Assembly: GCA_040264895.1 (NCBI GenBank)
Contig: JBDQHL010000001.1
Location: 15,060 to 79,059 of the forward strand
DNA length: 64,000 bases
Source of the DNA: Bacteroidota bacterium
GTDB lineage: Bacteria; Bacteroidota; Ignavibacteria; Kapaibacteriales; UBA2268
Direction of reading: 5' to 3'
The translations under genes were made by a program, and so were the position numbers. The stretch's first letter is position 1, and each line of letters starts with the position of its first letter. Below, piece after piece: positions 25,384 through 49,625 of this stretch. The notes beneath the pieces are model-generated. The model ran no database searches. It was not told where the DNA came from and saw nothing but the letters and a program-made list of their open reading frames with translations.

Positions 25384-27384
25384 ATGAAAAAAACTATACT
25401 TTTTCTTCTTCTGACCCAATTAGTCTTTACATTTTCACTGTTTTCCCAAAAAGGTAAGCAGCAAACCATATATATAAGTGTTGAATACGGAGAATCTGGA
25501 GGGGCTACACTTACCTGGCCCGATGACCCCAACTTTACTGGTACTTATAACATATTTGAAAATAAGTCTGAAACTGCTCAAAACTTCGAGTATGTGGACT
25601 TTGTTTCAGGAAATAGTTGGACTGACAACAGCTATCAGATTGGCACTACGAAAGAGCTAATGGTAACTAAGAAAGATGGAAACAGAATATCTGCTTTCAA
25701 TGTTATATCTATTGGTAAGGAGGTAGAAATGCCTTTCAACCAAGCTGGGATTATATTCTTAGTTGACGAAACACACTCTTTTGCCTTAGAAGGTGATATT
25801 TTCCAAGTACAAATGGAAATGCAAAAAGAAGGATGGGATGTTGTTAAATTAAACATACCAAGAACTGACACTCCTACCGAAGTAAAAGATTTAATCATGC
25901 AAGTAAAAGATGATATGGATCAGGAATTAAAAGCTATTTATATCATAGGTCATGTACCTGTTCCCTATAGTGGCTTTTTCAGCTTAACTGGCACGGCGCT
26001 GCCACCAGATGGTCACGTAGAAGGAAGTGGAAACCACACGGGAGCCTGGCCAGCAGATATGTATTATGGCGATTTGGACGGCAATTGGACTGACCAATAT
26101 GTAAACTACACAGATAGCAGGAGTGATAGAAATAATAATATTCCAGGTGATGGTAAATTTGACCAGAGTGCTCCACCAAGTGATATAGATGTAATAGTCA
26201 GTAGAGTTGATTTTCACGATATGGCTGCATTCCCAGAAGAGGAAGTGGAAATGCTTAGAGATTATTTAGTTAGAACTAGCAATTGGAGACAAGGTAAAAT
26301 ACCCCATATATATCGAGGATTAATTGATGATAATTTCAAAGGTTTGAATATATCAGCTAGTGGTTACCGTGCCATCAGCAACTTGGTCGGTACAGATTCT
26401 CTTTTTGATGACAGAGACTACTTGACTGAAATAACATACAATGAAGATGAAAACACTAATTATTATTTTAGCTTTGGTATGGGTGCTGGCTCTTACACTA
26501 GTTGCAATGGAATTGGCAAAACAAGTGATTTTGTAGAAAACAGAATCAATACCATATTCACTGGTGTTTCGGGAAGTTATTTCGGTGACTGGGATAGTAA
26601 GAACAATTTACTCAGAGCTACTCTGGCATCAGGTGCTCTCGGCAGCTTTTGGAGTGGTATACCGCACTGGTATTTGAATAAACTTGGTGTTGGTGGCACA
26701 ATTGGAGAATGCTTACTTTATACTCAGAATGCTGACTATGTAGGTAGTAACATAACAGTATCACTGAACGGAAGTCAAAGGAAAGTTCATACCACACTTC
26801 TCGGTGACCCTACACTAAAGTTTAAACCAGTAAATGAGCCTGGACCTGTTGCAGTTACAAAAGAAGCAGGTGCAATTAGAGTCAGCTGGGATGAAAATAC
26901 ACCAAATTCTGATGGACACAATCTGTATAGAAGAAATAATGATAATGGTAATGTTATAAAAGTAAATAATGAAGTAATTACTGATAAAGAGTATATAGAC
27001 GTTACAGCGCCTTCGGGTAGCTTTACGTATGTACTAAGAGCAGTAGAATTAGTAGAATTACCAACAAGTAGCTTCTATTCTACAAGTATGGGTTCTTTCT
27101 CAGACCCAATTAGCTTTGTAACATCAGTTGGATATGAAAAAGATGAGAGCTTTGTCGTAGCTCCGAACCCTACTTCTGGTAGTTTCCGTGTACAGTTACC
27201 AACTGATATTAGTGGAATTGAGTCACTAGAAATTCGAGATATGACTGGGAGTATAGTCTATACTCACACTGGAGATGTAGGTGTAGAACAAGTAATTAGC
27301 ACTAACTTAGCAACTGGTTCTTATGTGCTAATAGCAAAAACAAGAACTAGAACGCTTATCAAGAAATTACAGGTTGTTAAATAG
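25384..27384 (+). CDS. secreted protein with an Fn3-like module and a T9SS C-terminal sorting domain
   Basis: 666 aa with a signal peptide. The Fn3-like segment is PGPVAVTKEAGAIRVSWDEN. The CTD is VVAPNPTSGSFRVQLP...IRDMTGSIVYTH...GSYVLIAKTRTRTLIKKLQVVK. Confidence 0.75.
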   Translation: MKKTILFLLLTQLVFTFSLFSQKGKQQTIYISVEYGESGGATLTWPDDPNFTGTYNIFENKSETAQNFEYVDFVSGNSWTDNSYQIGTTKELMVTKKDGNRISAFNVISIGKEVEMPFNQAGIIFLVDETHSFALEGDIFQVQMEMQKEGWDVVKLNIPRTDTPTEVKDLIMQVKDDMDQELKAIYIIGHVPVPYSGFFSLTGTALPPDGHVEGSGNHTGAWPADMYYGDLDGNWTDQYVNYTDSRSDRNNNIPGDGKFDQSAPPSDIDVIVSRVDFHDMAAFPEEEVEMLRDYLVRTSNWRQGKIPHIYRGLIDDNFKGLNISASGYRAISNLVGTDSLFDDRDYLTEITYNEDENTNYYFSFGMGAGSYTSCNGIGKTSDFVENRINTIFTGVSGSYFGDWDSKNNLLRATLASGALGSFWSGIPHWYLNKLGVGGTIGECLLYTQNADYVGSNITVSLNGSQRKVHTTLLGDPTLKFKPVNEPGPVAVTKEAGAIRVSWDENTPNSDGHNLYRRNNDNGNVIKVNNEVITDKEYIDVTAPSGSFTYVLRAVELVELPTSSFYSTSMGSFSDPISFVTSVGYEKDESFVVAPNPTSGSFRVQLPTDISGIESLEIRDMTGSIVYTHTGDVGVEQVISTNLATGSYVLIAKTRTRTLIKKLQVVK

Positions 27385-27410
27385 TAAAGGGATTTCGTTA
27401 TTTAAAAAAT

Positions 27411-27760
27411 TATGCCCCTCTGGAGGGGCTGTCTGAATTTATTCAGACTGGGGAGGAAAAGAATGTCACAGCGAGGACTGAAAGGACACGGCTGTCTCAA
27501 AAGAGATTCCCACGGTCGTCCATTGGACTCCCTCGGAATGACCTCAAAAATGCACCTGCACTAGGTAAAATTGTCACTCTTAACATAGCGAAGAGTCTAT
27601 CTATGGCTAAACCGAATTGTTGTGATAATGCATAGAATCTTTGTTAAATAAAACATGAATTCTTCACTTCGTTCAGAATGACATCAGATTATAACTTCAG
27701 GGATTGAAACGGCCATAAAAATGCCTACCTCCACCAGCAAAGGACAAGTAATCTAACCTC
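27411..27760. repeat. GC-rich hairpin-repeat tract A
   Basis: Hairpins are gcccctc-tg-gaggggc (27414-27429) and gtctgaat-tt-attcagac (27431-27448). Four further short hairpins lie at 27464-27498, 27505-27543, 27573-27598 and 27657-27685. A degenerate right-end motif acctccaccagcaaagga lies at 27727-27745. The tract is related to tracts at 28608-28795 and 49441-49600. Confidence 0.7.
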
Positions 27761-27775
27761 TATTCCTTTTTCATC

Positions 27776-28561
27776 TTACTGTTTTATAAATTTCCGTGTA
27801 ACTACTTCACCATCTAAATCTAATCGAATGAAGTATACCCCAACTGGTAATTGTGAAATGTTATAATCTTGTGAGAATTGTTCAGAATCCAAAACACCAT
27901 TTTTAATAGTCTCTATTTCAGTTCCAATCAAATCTACTATACTTAACTCATAAGCACTACCGGCGATAGCATCAAATGTTATAGTCATATCATTATTCGC
28001 TGGGTTGGGTGAAAGGTTGAAGTTATTGAATTTATTACTTTCTATATTAGTTTGGGTTAAAAATTGGAACGATTTAATCCCTTTTGCTGATTGTACTATA
28101 TAAGTTTTGTTTTTTTTATTGTATTTAGACAATAAACCTATTTTGTCTTTGAATTCAAGATTTTGAGAATATTCAAGACTTCTTGTTTGCATATTAAAAA
28201 AAAGTAATGGGCTACCGAAATTTAGAAATAGAATTTTTTCATCATCAGTAAATATTGTTCTTCCAGAGTGTTTATTATCTGGTAGAATTTCAAATCTACT
28301 TTCTTCATAAATGTTGTTTATTAGAATAGAGTCAATTAACTCTCCTGTAAGGGCCTCTCGGATTTCAACTGTACCAATATCTCCATCCGCTCCCATCATT
28401 ATAAATTGATTCTCTCCTTTTAAAAACTCTATATCTAAATGATAAGTATGACCATAAGGGTTTATATCCCATTCTTTCTCCCACACAGTAACAATCTCAC
28501 CTGCCTCAATATGGAGTGCAGTAAGTATGAAAGCAGTTAGGAATAGTAATAGGTTTTTCAT
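27776..28561 (-). CDS. secreted protein with a T9SS C-terminal sorting domain
   Basis: 261 aa with a signal peptide. The CTD is LSPNPANNDMTITFDA...LSIVDLIGTEIETI...GVYFIRLDLDGEVVTRKFIKQ. Confidence 0.75.
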   Translation of the reverse strand: MKNLLLFLTAFILTALHIEAGEIVTVWEKEWDINPYGHTYHLDIEFLKGENQFIMMGADGDIGTVEIREALTGELIDSILINNIYEESRFEILPDNKHSGRTIFTDDEKILFLNFGSPLLFFNMQTRSLEYSQNLEFKDKIGLLSKYNKKNKTYIVQSAKGIKSFQFLTQTNIESNKFNNFNLSPNPANNDMTITFDAIAGSAYELSIVDLIGTEIETIKNGVLDSEQFSQDYNISQLPVGVYFIRLDLDGEVVTRKFIKQ

Positions 28562-28607
28562 TTATTCTTTTCAATTATAATTTGTGGTTTCTATTTAGTT
28601 TTTTCCA

Positions 28608-28795
28608 TCAGCTGTGCTCTTCTCGAGGAGCTGTCAGAGTTTGTTCTGAACGAGAAGGAATAATTTAATATTTGTAGAGACGTACTGTGTACGTCTCCAA
28701 TATTGTATCAAATAAGACGCATTCAATGCGTCTCTACGGTTTTTTATAATGACAGCGCTTACCACCCTCCGACAGCGGAGGATAGTCAATTCCTT
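28608..28795. repeat. GC-rich hairpin-repeat tract B
   Basis: Hairpins are gctcttc-tc-gaggagc (28616-28631), gagacgtac-tgt-gtacgtctc (28677-28697), agacgcatt-c-aatgcgtct (28715-28733) and cctccg-acag-cggagg (28766-28781). Confidence 0.7.
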
Positions 28796-28800
28796 ACACC

Positions 28801-30018
28801 CTAATCCAAATCGTATTGCTTCAGCTTACGGTATAGTGTACGTTCGCTTATGCCTAATTCTTGGGCAGCTAATCTACGATTGCCGTCGAACCTATCTAAC
28901 GAATAGACGATTAGTCGCTTTTCTATATCAGCTAAGTTGAGGGTGTCGAAGTTGCCTAGTAGCTCATCGCTCTCTACTACCTCATCAGCATGCTGTATCA
29001 TGAACTCATTCTGATTGGTAATCACTTCGTCTATCTTGTTTGTGTTGTGTCTTGCTATGTGCTTCAGCTCTTCTATGTCATTTTTTATTTCCAAAAGAGT
29101 TCTGAATATAATTCCCAACTCTAAGTTTGAAGCAGATTCACCAGCTATATTTGTTGGTACCATAGCACTTGTGGTGTTGCCTTGTTCATTTCGATTGGTA
29201 TATCCAGTTTGCGGAGGTAGGGATTGTCTAATATATTTTGCCACATTTTCTGCTTCTATGAACTCCTGAGCTTCCAAGGTTAGCATAGTCTCAGTAAGGT
29301 TCTTTAGCTCTCTTACGTTACCGTCCCAACGCTGATTGATAAGTACTTCCATTGCCTCACTGCTTATACCTTTATAATCTAGACCAATTTTCTCGGCCGT
29401 TTGGTTTGCAAAGTAGTTGAAGAGTGGCTCTATGTCTGCCTTATGCTCACGTAGAGCTGGCAGTAATATATGAACTGAACGCAAACGGAAATACAAGTCC
29501 TGACGGAACTGTCCTCGCTCCACTCTTTCTTCTAACTCTCTGTTTGTAGCTGCGACTACCCTAACATCTACCTTACGATTATCAGACGAACCAAGACGGC
29601 TAAATTCACCAGATTCAAGCACTCTGAGTAATTTGACTTGAGTTTCTACTGGCATCTCGCCAATTTCATCAAGGAATATTGTGCCTTTGTCTGCAGTTTC
29701 AAAAAATCCTTTGCGCTGTTCGTTCGCACTGGTGAAAGCACCTTTTTCATGCCCAAATAATTCAGACTCTAATAAGGTTTCGGGAATAGCACCACAATTT
29801 ACGCTAACAAAATTGTTCCCCTTGCGCTTACTTAGCCCATGCAGGGCTTTTGCAAATACTTCCTTGCCAGTTCCAGTTTCACCTGTTATCAGAACTGATA
29901 GCTCCGTAGGAGCGGCTTTCAGTAATAGCTTTTTGGCTTTGCGCATTGGTTCGGCATAGCCAATAATACCAAACTTTTTCTCTAAAAATTTATCGCTATG
30001 TTGTGAGCTCGATTGCAT
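28801..30018 (-). CDS. sigma-54-dependent transcriptional activator (bEBP) lacking an N-terminal sensory or receiver domain
   Basis: 405 aa. The AAA+ domain starts near residue 20, with Walker A GETGTGKE, Walker B IFLDEIGEM and a sigma-54 contact loop reading GAFTSA. The C-terminal Fis-type HTH is RRLAAQELGISERTLYRKLKQY. Confidence 0.9.
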   Translation of the reverse strand: MQSSSQHSDKFLEKKFGIIGYAEPMRKAKKLLLKAAPTELSVLITGETGTGKEVFAKALHGLSKRKGNNFVSVNCGAIPETLLESELFGHEKGAFTSANEQRKGFFETADKGTIFLDEIGEMPVETQVKLLRVLESGEFSRLGSSDNRKVDVRVVAATNRELEERVERGQFRQDLYFRLRSVHILLPALREHKADIEPLFNYFANQTAEKIGLDYKGISSEAMEVLINQRWDGNVRELKNLTETMLTLEAQEFIEAENVAKYIRQSLPPQTGYTNRNEQGNTTSAMVPTNIAGESASNLELGIIFRTLLEIKNDIEELKHIARHNTNKIDEVITNQNEFMIQHADEVVESDELLGNFDTLNLADIEKRLIVYSLDRFDGNRRLAAQELGISERTLYRKLKQYDLD

Positions 30019-45737: not shown

Positions 45738-45768
45738 AACCAACTCTTTTCTAAGGGTTGGTTTTTTT
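45738..45768 (+). terminator. intrinsic terminator T1, left copy of a duplicated 31-nt element
   Basis: Sequence aaccaactcttttctaagggttggttttttt. The stem is ccaactctt/aagggttgg with one G-U pair, followed by T7. It matches 49377-49407 at 28 of 31 positions. Confidence 0.8.
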
Positions 45769-46082
45769 GTTATATTGGGAAAGTCAAAAATAAGAGTTTT
45801 AAAAACATAAGCGGCTAACGTTCGCATATCCATTACAAGAGAGAATATATTAACTAAATAACTATATTTATTTAGTGACTTAACTTCATCAATGGAATAT
45901 TGTTTTACGAAAGTAATAATTGTTTGATTTATGGATGGTTGGGCACAATAAAAAAAAGATACGAATCAATGAATAGACAACTAACCGAAATAAAACAAAA
46001 GAACACATTTGGGTTAGACCATTGTTCACCATAGAACATTTGATAAGTTAATTTAAAAAAATGAGTAGATTTGGATAAATTT

Positions 46083-49206: not shown

Positions 49207-49376
49207 CAGCGATAGGTAATGCCAAGCATTTATGTGTATCTTCCTTAGGTATAAAAGACAAAAAAAGTTCAACTACCACTGTTGACTATGCAGGCCGCTT
49301 TGAGGAGGAAAGCTGTAGAAATGATTTTTTTTAACCACAGTCGCTAATGCCCTTGGCTTTACACGCAGCTGAGGAC

Positions 49377-49407
49377 AACTAACCCTTTTCTTAGGGTTGG
49401 TTTTTTT
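49377..49407 (+). terminator. intrinsic terminator T2, right copy of the duplicated 31-nt element
   Basis: Sequence aactaacccttttcttagggttggttttttt. It has a stem and T7 run and matches T1 at 28 of 31 positions. Confidence 0.75.
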
Positions 49408-49440
49408 GGTACTAAACGGCATTATTAAATTATACCACCA

Positions 49441-49600
49441 CCTGTGCCCCTCTGGAGGAGCTTGTCACGTCTTCAGCGTGAGCTGGCAGAACTTGTTATG
49501 ACTGAGGAGGATTGATTTAACAATGTCCACCTCCGACTTTTGCTGTTATCAAAAGCCACCTCCGCCAGCGGAGAACAACCAAGTCTATTTTTGGTATTGT
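49441..49600. repeat. GC-rich hairpin-repeat tract C
   Basis: Elements are gcccctc-tg-gaggagc (49446-49461), cacg-tcttcag-cgtg, ...gactgaggaggattg, and ctccg-ccag-cggag (49560-49573). This is the same module order as tracts A and B. Confidence 0.7.
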
Positions 49601-49625
49601 TTTTTTTGTTATATTGGGGGAAAGG
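49578..49625 (+). repeat. degenerate third terminator-like copy plus an 18-nt exact repeat
   Basis: Weak stem accaa/ttggt (49578-49582 / 49591-95) followed by T8. The sequence tttttttgttatattggg at 49601-49618 is identical to 45762-45779. Confidence 0.7.

Follow-up and report, generated by a model that had tools for sequence, protein, structure and literature searches.

Modular hairpin repeats with three-arm ends in a Kapaibacteriales genome and their association with small DUF559 nuclease genes

We analysed a window of 64,000 nucleotides (nt) of DNA from a Bacteroidota bacterium (Kapaibacteriales, UBA2268; GenBank assembly GCA_040264895.1, contig JBDQHL010000001.1, positions 15,060 to 79,059), which carries three hairpin-rich elements: A (27412-27748), B (28614-28783) and C (49444-49578). 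A and B bracket a gene for a cargo protein of the type IX secretion system (T9SS). The three elements belong to a real, structured, modular and unstable repeat family that crosses phyla, and the end type of this family is strongly associated, clade by clade, with DUF559 nuclease genes. What is new here is that small DUF559 genes lie between left-type and right-type ends, with nuclease clades matching end types. With a probability of roughly 60%, we consider A, B and C to be gene-less copies of a small pseudo-palindromic selfish DNA element that has DUF559-bearing full-length relatives.

All three elements lie on the plus strand of the window and share one order of left end and right end. The left end, ML, consists of the hairpins H1 (GCYCCTY-loop-RAGGRGC) and H2 (GKCWGAAC-loop-GTTCWGAC) followed by a purine arm (TGRGGAGGA). 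The right end, MR, is in outline a CCACCTCC arm, a variable hairpin H5 and then a hairpin CCTCCGCCAGCGGAGG; its full form reads TCCACCTCCG, H5 and CCACCTCCGCCAGCGGAGGACAA, the terminal part of CCACCTCCGCCAGCGGAGGACAA being H6. Between ML and MR, optional hairpin cassettes may occur. A sequence-only reading had described this arrangement for the tracts of A and B, and the observation as a whole was confirmed, with every coordinate it gave found correct. Its left order of palindrome, second hairpin and purine tail is present in A, in B and in the third copy at 49446, and its right module is perfect in B (28762-28783), degenerate in A (27724-27748), and also perfect in C. The GC enrichment it saw in these tracts is there but modest, at 0.42-0.46 against a genome mean of 0.34.

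When the open reading frames (ORFs) within 1.2 kb of the repeat motif were clustered, one recurring small family was found among the matches listed. It matched Pfam DUF559 (E = 4e-32) and the solved DUF559 structure 3HRL (2.8e-21). The DUF559 gene lay between a left-type and a right-type end in five genomes, and the association of gene and ends was seen at 30 genomic loci in all, plus 63 metagenomic loci and a site beside ycjD of E. coli. All nine other genomes of the genus contain DUF559 genes, with 1-7 copies each. The 17 genus copies that were inspected were without exception bracketed by three-arm GC hairpin modules, which fell into six sequence types and included relatives of modules M6, M7 and M4 of the window genome; matches to the M4/M4b models adjoin type-B DUF559 genes in relatives. 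On the protein tree, the six flank types fell on six nuclease clades with no more changes than the theoretical minimum, a result that no shuffle achieved (0/200). Clade A has the signature TKAEACLWKY..FRRQRP and the ends CCACCTCC/GGAGGTGG, and joins the sole Kapaibacterium copy (genome G009) with copies from Chitinophagaceae and Sphingobacteriales at a support of 99/99. The window copies carry these clade-A end sequences without the gene.

DUF559 was present in 9 of 10 motif-bearing genomes compared with 3 of 14 control genomes, and most DUF559 copies of motif-bearing genomes outside the genus have three-arm flanks. Flanks of DUF559 genes scored higher as inverted repeats (median 13.5) than those of 552 small control genes (median 9.0; p = 5e-14). 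The density of the three-arm motif was 6.0 per kb within 300 nt of a DUF559 gene, against 0.28 per kb beyond 500 nt. A metagenome set of 80 independent loci encoding clade-A relatives was also assayed. Here the right-type arm was found downstream of the gene at 62 of 75 loci (control orientation, 12) and the left-type arm upstream at 45 of 68 (control, 15), both arms being present at 35 of 63.

Several observations weigh against the explanation of A, B and C as derivatives of a nuclease-bearing element. The window genome, G000, has no assembled DUF559 gene, its assembly being incomplete (1.73 Mb, compared with about 3 Mb for relatives). The window copies look like gene-less derivatives for this reason, and the copies of this genome are probably orphans. 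An intact clade-A gene was found in one of the 10 genus genomes (G009), and ML/MR in all 10. The clade-A gene of G009 sits between two complete short elements and not within one. The control genes used for the inverted-repeat scores of DUF559 flanks all came from one AT-rich genome. Further, no target-site signature was found, with no duplication in 20 flank pairs, and no cleavage, excision or insertion event was observed in this sequence analysis.

The association could also have arisen in the opposite direction, with the nuclease gene homing into pre-existing repeats. The short left-right elements would then be homing sites, and DUF559 a free-standing homing endonuclease invading three-arm repeats that are spread otherwise (for instance by replication slippage, recombination or triplex-induced breaks). 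This is in keeping with the position of the gene in G009, with the far wider spread of ML/MR than of clade-A genes, with interiors that are swapped between fixed ends, and with the fact that Vsr/DUF559-type folds include proven homing endonucleases (I-Bth0305I; PMC3239194, PMC3424549). The homing account differs from the selfish-element explanation in direction alone; the matched nuclease and end clades imply a specific recognition that fits the selfish-element explanation too, and no separate spreading mechanism is known. We regard it as unlikely.

Several clade-A DUF559 ORFs extend into the end module (L196 at G009:C15, L074 and L088), with a C-terminal ...SSAGGGG encoded by CTGTCCTCCGCCGGCGGAGGTGG; the repeat thus contributes coding sequence. 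In separate comparisons, DUF559 genes with their flanks were near-identical in two species of the genus (L187 of G001 and L193 of G008; L184 of G008 and L195 of G001), with branch lengths of 0-0.008, which suggests recent transfer or very recent common ancestry. Among the papers mentioning DUF559 that were screened, none links the family to repeats. The nearest related work concerns Vsr-like repair in Caulobacter and Vsr-like homing endonucleases (PMC3239194, PMC3424549).

In the anatomy that underlies the selfish-element explanation, each end is a three-arm motif: a GC hairpin is followed by a spacer, in most cases with a second, variable hairpin in it, and then by a third arm repeating one arm of the first hairpin. 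The left end runs C-arm, G-arm, G-arm, and the right end is its inverse (CCACCTCC, hairpin, CCACCTCCGCCAGCGGAGG). The extra G arm on the left can pair with the extra C arm on the right, and a single strand can therefore fold to a multi-way junction that closes off the variable interior with its interchangeable cassettes. In full-length relatives, this interior is the gene of a DUF559 endonuclease of about 130 amino acids (aa), Vsr-like and of the PD-(D/E)xK type, with each clade having its own end sequences. The nuclease is proposed to recognise and cut the ends when these are folded or in cruciform form, after which the element would be copied, or its interior swapped, through repair, gene conversion or re-insertion. 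Such cutting followed by repair or re-insertion would explain the dispersal of the repeats, their presence or absence at orthologous sites and the exchange of cassettes. We infer that the window copies are gene-less derivatives or homing sites, with folded ends as the substrate of a DUF559 nuclease. Copies between a stop codon and a terminator would be co-transcribed and may incidentally shape the mRNA 3' end. This secondary effect is kept as a possibility because copies ahead of a terminator, for example that behind hslU, must be transcribed.

The distribution of the family was followed with the right-end 20-mer CCACCTCCRCCAGCGGAGGA, scanned over contigs with one genome per species. Exact matches occurred in at least 119 stretches, about 2 being expected by chance (an estimate). 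The matches listed were mainly from Bacteroidota, Chlorobi-group and Smithella-type genomes, and the taxa among them included Chitinophagaceae, Flavihumibacter soli, Fulvivirga imtechensis, Pedobacter, Sphingobacteriales, Cryomorphaceae/Schleiferiaceae, Chloroherpetonaceae, Kapaibacterium, Smithella/Syntrophaceae and Calditrichota. In 114 of 130 instances among these listed matches, a second CCACCTCC arm was present within 70 nt upstream, and the spacers between the two arms comprised 76 distinct sequences, most of them predicted to form hairpins. Left ends in these genomes have the reverse-complement sequence of the right ends (TCCTCCGCTGGCGGAGGTG-hairpin-CGGAGGTGG) or a C/G variant of that sequence, and the window's genus has, in ML, a diverged left end of the same design. 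No recurring transposase was found near the 20-mer among the matches listed, the sole recurring small gene being DUF559. A transposase-like gene between two inverted Smithella copies (L094) was considered and rejected, its product having a PEP-CTERM-like tail and being neither a transposase nor a nuclease. A literature search for the core sequence of the repeat returned no paper.

All 10 genomes of the window's Kapaibacterium-like genus carry the ML/MR family. BLAST with one full copy gave 6-28 matches per genome in the nine other members of the genus, and none in 21 genomes from other genera of the same family and order. No orthologue of the T9SS cargo gene (261 aa) was found in other species of the genus, where it had only paralogues and matches of the C-terminal domain; consequently, hslU and a gene for a sigma-54 regulator were taken as synteny anchors. 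Behind hslU of G000, ML-M3'-M4-MR separates the stop codon from a conserved terminator. The same place is occupied in G005 by a left end with an M9 cassette and a truncated right end, and in G003 by an M5 hairpin only; seven more distant species have the terminator alone. In the second interval, G003 retains the 666-aa gene and the sigma-54 regulator that flank the tracts of A and B, and two other genes (437 and 201 aa) lie in between (L235 3152-5977); its spacers hold M5, M8, classical repetitive extragenic palindromic (REP) sequences, an ML fragment and M3+M4. From the two comparisons it follows that the elements mark a variable spot and that interiors are swapped between fixed ends. In G000 the interval 27385-28800 holds one gene, that of the 261-aa T9SS cargo, and is a replacement hot spot relative to G003. 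Downstream of the 261-aa gene, G000 retains a short remnant (ATGAAAAAGGA) that is similar to the codons for the C-terminus in the 437-aa gene of G003.

The genome-wide search for further copies gave 65 module matches in 29 loci of the window genome (96 contigs, 34% GC). Of these loci, 27 were intergenic and 2 lay inside crude ORF calls; 10 were between convergent and 2 between divergent genes. In this genome and its nine congeners, co-occurring modules were always ordered ML, optional M3, optional M4, MR on one strand. Minimal ML+MR copies measured 108-126 nt, and composite elements reached about 340 nt.

The compensatory stem changes that had been proposed for the family were significant. Among 26 left ends, 93.9% of stem cells were paired compared with 86.8% in shuffles, and 5 pairs had changed on both sides; one H1 pair, for example, was U-A in 14, C-G in 10 and U.G in 2 of them. 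The corresponding values for 21 right ends were 91.9% and 79.1%, with 7 pairs changed on both sides. In neither set was the observed pairing reached by a shuffle (0/500 each). In the right ends, H5 has 7 pairs, of which 6 covaried, and H6 was almost invariant. The third arm tracked the C-arm of H1 (9/1/0/16, Fisher p = 3e-6, uncorrected for relatedness). A minimal copy of 125 nt was predicted to fold as a four-way junction (-50.1 kcal/mol, z = -4.8). The purine arm of ML is able to pair with the first CCACCTCC arm of MR, and the extension of this helix varies compensatingly among copies (GGACAAA/TTTGTCC, GGACTT/AAGTCC, GGAATT/AATTCC). An outer helix, P1, that pairs the 5' end with the 3' end as in the minimum-energy fold was rejected: the local H1 hairpin is favoured because the H1 arms change together while the H6 arms barely vary. 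Hairpins whose loop is TCGAC-N2-3-GCTC (module M8: GTTCACTTCGACAGGCTCAGTGAGC, GTGCATTGAGCATAGTCGAAATGC) adjoin ML/MR elements at several loci, including the C2:31195 region of G000.

Covarying stems in ML and MR would also be expected of primarily structured RNA elements (stabilisers of 3' untranslated regions, terminators or a small-RNA family) for which selection would act at the RNA level, with the window's plus strand as the functional one. The copies between stop codon and terminator, as behind hslU, are transcribed; at co-directional spacers of the window genome, 9 of 11 loci were in sense orientation; and in tract A, H1 coincides in part with a terminator-like site of the minus strand. 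Rfam gave no match for the whole window at the gathering score, and none for three complete elements from relatives; when searched by E-value on 27300-28900, the best score on the elements was 17 bits against thresholds of 50-61. ARAGORN found no tRNA. Wobble pairs in the stems were 8 G.T and 4 A.C, a ratio from which no functional strand clearly stands out. The orientation of elements relative to neighbour genes across phyla was unbiased (++16, --27, +-17, -+9). Moreover, the sites are non-syntenic and differ between close relatives, and for PIT elements, a kind of repeat compared below, earlier work cited in PMC4666352 is reported there to have found neither promoter nor terminator activity. 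A small structured RNA family, one of the two readings first offered, therefore finds no support as the main explanation, there being no Rfam match, no clear strand preference in the wobble pairs, no cross-phylum sense bias and a patchy distribution. We consider a primarily RNA-level role unlikely.

The other reading first offered, a family like REP sequences or miniature inverted-repeat transposable elements (MITEs), holds in kind: the elements are dispersed, almost all intergenic, and present or absent at orthologous sites. They are neither classical REPs nor textbook MITEs. A classical REP/REPIN family would be mobilised, on single-stranded hairpins, by a REP-associated tyrosine transposase (RAYT) of the IS200/IS605 Y1 type, and the hairpin-forming, almost entirely intergenic elements lying mostly downstream of genes resemble such a family; Y1_Tnp genes of about 150 aa were present in 6 of 8 same-genus genomes searched. 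RAYT was rejected as the partner of ML/MR since the RAYT genes are flanked by another repeat, GCCCCAGCGGGGC then ATATCTGTAGC, with a GTAG head. ML/MR carry no GTAG or CGTC head, the true REPs of the genus carry CTGTAGC, and G005 and G008 have many ML/MR copies and no Y1_Tnp gene, G000 likewise being without Y1_Tnp/RAYT. Mobilisation by RAYT is thus very unlikely. At five loci (L013-L016 and L020; genomes G001, G003, G006 and G007), a RAYT (Y1_Tnp) gene had classical REPs on both sides, each a GC hairpin followed by ATATCTGTAGC; RAYT-REP is a second, independent repeat system of the genus. As to MITEs, terminal inverted repeats are present, the left end approximating the right end in reverse complement; the agreement is exact for copies of Flavihumibacter and Chitinophagaceae and has diverged in the window's genus. 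Neither a target-site duplication (in the 20 flank pairs) nor a parent insertion sequence with a transposase (among the 20-mer matches listed) was found.

In the window, the genes around A and B encode a 666-aa T9SS protein, the 261-aa protein with a T9SS sorting domain (Por_Secre_tail; 27776-28561, minus strand) and a sigma-54 activator. The 261-aa protein is short compared with its paralogues of about 450 aa. Tract A lies between convergent genes, its start being 29 nt past the stop codon of the 666-aa gene on the plus strand, and tract B follows the 3' end of the sigma-54 regulator gene but is 5' of the 261-aa gene. Given these orientations, the suggestion that the elements sit directly 3' of minus-strand genes is only partly right.

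Element A is the longest copy (about 337 nt); between its left end and a right end that has decayed, it holds four hairpin cassettes. Its ML (27414-27457) has H1 GCCCCTC-TG-GAGGGGC at 27414-27429, H2 GTCTGAA-TTTA-TTCAGAC at 27431-27448 and a G-rich third arm, TGGGGAGGA, at 27449-27457, which is a mirror copy of the 3' arm of H1. The four extra hairpins reported for tract A are real, and each is a member of a separate repeat family that recurs at other places in the genome. They are M3 (27463-27499; ATGTCACAGCGAGGACTGAAAGGACACGGCTGTCTCA; 5 copies in the window genome and many in relatives), M4b (27504-27542; AGATTCCCAC..CTCGGAATGAC; 6 copies in the window genome), an M5-like hairpin (27573-27597; GTCACTCTT-loop-GAAGAGTC) and M4 (27657-27682; GAATTCTTCACTTCGTTCAGAATGAC; 7 copies in the window genome). 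The decayed H6 of A reads CCTACCTCCACCAGCAAAGGACAAG, and a similarly decayed piece is found at the matching position in G003. An ATG ORF of 50 codons (27412-27564, plus strand) covers the left end and the M3/M4b cassettes; being composed of repeat modules, it was taken as spurious.

Element B has a left end, an M9 cassette and, of the right end, the terminal hairpin only. Its left end (28616-28659) comprises H1 GCTCTTC-TC-GAGGAGC (28616-28631) with one G.U pair, H2 (28633-28651) and the purine tail GAGAAGGA as the third arm (28652-28659). M9 (28676-28746) consists of the hairpins AGAGACGTAC-TG-TGTACGTCTC and AGACGCAT-TCA-ATGCGTCT followed by a T run, and is near-identical, with few base differences, to the filling of the element behind hslU in G005. 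The right end of B, CCACCCTCCGACAGCGGAGGAT, contains H6 as CCACCCTCCG-ACAG-CGGAGGAT (z -2.6). Element C is a near-minimal copy with a full right end. H1 (49446-49461), a mini-hairpin termed M10 (TGTCACGTCTTCAGCGTGAGC; 49463-49483) that lies between H1 and H2, and H2 (49485-49502) form its left part, with the TGAGGAGGA arm directly after H2; in its right part, the first CCACCTCC arm precedes H5 (49536-49555) and a perfect H6 (49556-49578). A solo H6 at 49342-49378 (plus strand) holds an inserted module in its loop, CGC-TAATGCCCTTGGCTTTACACGCA-GCTGAGGACAA, and the same insert was found in copies on C3 and in G003.

Further nesting was observed, with a hairpin within the H1 loop and TAATGCCYTTGGCTTYACACGCA within the H6 loop (L196 1347-1415, G000 C3:45004-45079 and window 49342-49378). 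Hairpin loops and junctions thus seem to be insertion sites for still smaller modules. Terminator hairpins with a common tail, TTTTTTGTTATATTGGGGG, occur in the window at 45738-45779, 49377-49418 and 49577-49618, and behind hslU (L055, L057). Conserved in G003 and G005, this tail is also found after terminators unrelated to one another; a promoter, or some other signal for the next gene, is a possible role.

Among known systems, BOX elements of Streptococcus pneumoniae and MITEs share with the present family a modular grammar of left end, interior and right end, variable interior modules, inverted-repeat-like ends, the lack of a gene and a dispersed distribution; they differ in that the present family is unrelated to them in sequence, shows no target-site duplication and lacks a parent with a DDE transposase. 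REP, REPIN and bacterial interspersed mosaic elements with their RAYT are likewise short extragenic palindromes, mostly 3' of genes and arranged in mosaics, in which a small enzyme gene is flanked by cognate repeats and enzyme and repeat evolve in match. The enzyme here is, in contrast, a PD-(D/E)xK Vsr-like DUF559 nuclease and not an HUH Y1 transposase, and the GTAG/CGTC head is lacking. Vsr-like homing endonucleases of the I-Bth0305I family (PMC3239194, PMC2677866) belong to the same superfamily (VSR/DUF559/DUF2726; PMC3424549) and lead a selfish-gene life, but they reside in group I introns or inteins, have one specific target gene and carry no dispersed hairpin flanks.

The closest published analogue in logic is the Ssn-NTS/SRM system (Chenal et al. 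2025, PMC11893778), in which the gene of a small single-domain nuclease has copies of its cognate dispersed hairpin repeat on either side, in many phyla and with clade-specific motif variants. The repeats might themselves be Ssn-related motifs (SRM), the hairpins on which small GIY-YIG single-strand nucleases act in, for example, Neisseria, and several cassettes do begin with GTCAC, like the SRM head HGTCWY. The SRM pattern HGTCWYN(0-2)YYVSBRHN(0-5)WNVSBRGN(0-2)RNCYNB is, however, not enriched, having 1 match in the window genome against 0-3 in shuffles, and the flanking gene is DUF559 with a Vsr-like fold rather than GIY-YIG. An SRM identity of ML/MR was rejected on the pattern count and is largely refuted, its likelihood being close to nil. 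The role of DUF559, drawn from sequence, is a putative one.

BoxC repeats, later called PIT elements, have been described as 'intrastrand triplex motifs' (TMECO; Holder et al. 2015, PMC4666352). In that survey, TMECO occurred 3610 times in 262 proteobacterial genomes, was intergenic without strand bias and was tied to locus instability; no transposase or integrase was found nearby, and the paper mentions no link to endonucleases, ycjD or DUF559. YcjD is the sole NCBIfam-named DUF559 protein of E. coli K-12, and a perfect match to the TMECO pattern lies 168 nt downstream of its gene. Between ycjD and this TMECO/BoxC motif we observed a duplicated fragment of the ycjD 3' end (GGAGACGGTGCTGGAGAATATTC...; L319, NC_000913.3:1351205-1351420), which looks like the scar that a second DUF559 copy, or a rearrangement at the repeat, would leave.

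The likeness to ML/MR lies in three consecutive GC-rich blocks ordered C-G-G (C-C-G on the other strand) around a hairpin core, and in copies that are intergenic, unbiased in strand, many and patchy, at loci that vary between close relatives; neither kind has a transposase or integrase nearby. Three blocks of at least 6-9 nt are seen in ML of A (GCCCCTC / GAGGGGC / GGGGAGG) and in MR (CCACCTCC / CCACCTCCGC / GCGGAGG), and a strict three-arm scan of the window flagged 49560-49573 and 28715-28733. Two results count against placing the window copies with BoxC outright. The TMECO consensus CCCTCNCCC-N3-6-GGGNGAGGG-N3-GGGNGAGGG had 0 matches in the window genome, the arms here being built on CCTCC/GGAGG and those of TMECO on CCCTCNCCC/GGGNGAGGG. 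The short loops of the published patterns (1-6 nt in ITxF; N3-6 and N3 in TMECO) are also not reproduced: the first loop has 2-4 nt, and the second 'loop' of ML/MR is a covarying hairpin of 18-25 nt (H2 or H5), beyond published triplex limits. The related modules M6 and M7 do have second loops of 2-4 nt.

DUF559 may be the long-missing enzyme partner of BoxC/triplex-like repeats. Tentatively, and with slightly less than even confidence, we propose that small DUF559 endonucleases with clade-matched three-arm ends form a cross-phylum nuclease-plus-repeat selfish class, to which BoxC/PIT/triplex repeats, those of E. coli (with YcjD) among them, would belong as gene-less members. If so, this class would stand beside RAYT-REP and Ssn-SRM as a third enzyme class for extragenic repeats. 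BoxC has been known since the 1990s, and no mobility gene was found for it; it would then have a partner enzyme and a way of spreading that can be tested. Hundreds of bacterial genomes carry BoxC/PIT/triplex repeats in abundance, and these mark unstable loci. DUF559, for its part, has very many members and a solved structure (3HRL), yet hardly any of its biology is known. Should repeats and nuclease belong together, each of these puzzles would gain a hypothesis open to testing in E. coli K-12, which has ycjD and BoxC copies. Annotation pipelines could then recognise such elements, and variable regions like that at the T9SS cargo gene would gain a candidate cause. The present elements further differ from BoxC in that left and right motifs are paired in a composite element of 110-340 nt with interior cassettes. 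Because the strict TMECO pattern and the short-second-loop rule fail, they are set down as a variant, and the BoxC/PIT/intrastrand-triplex motif is the closest described kind for the ML/MR elements.

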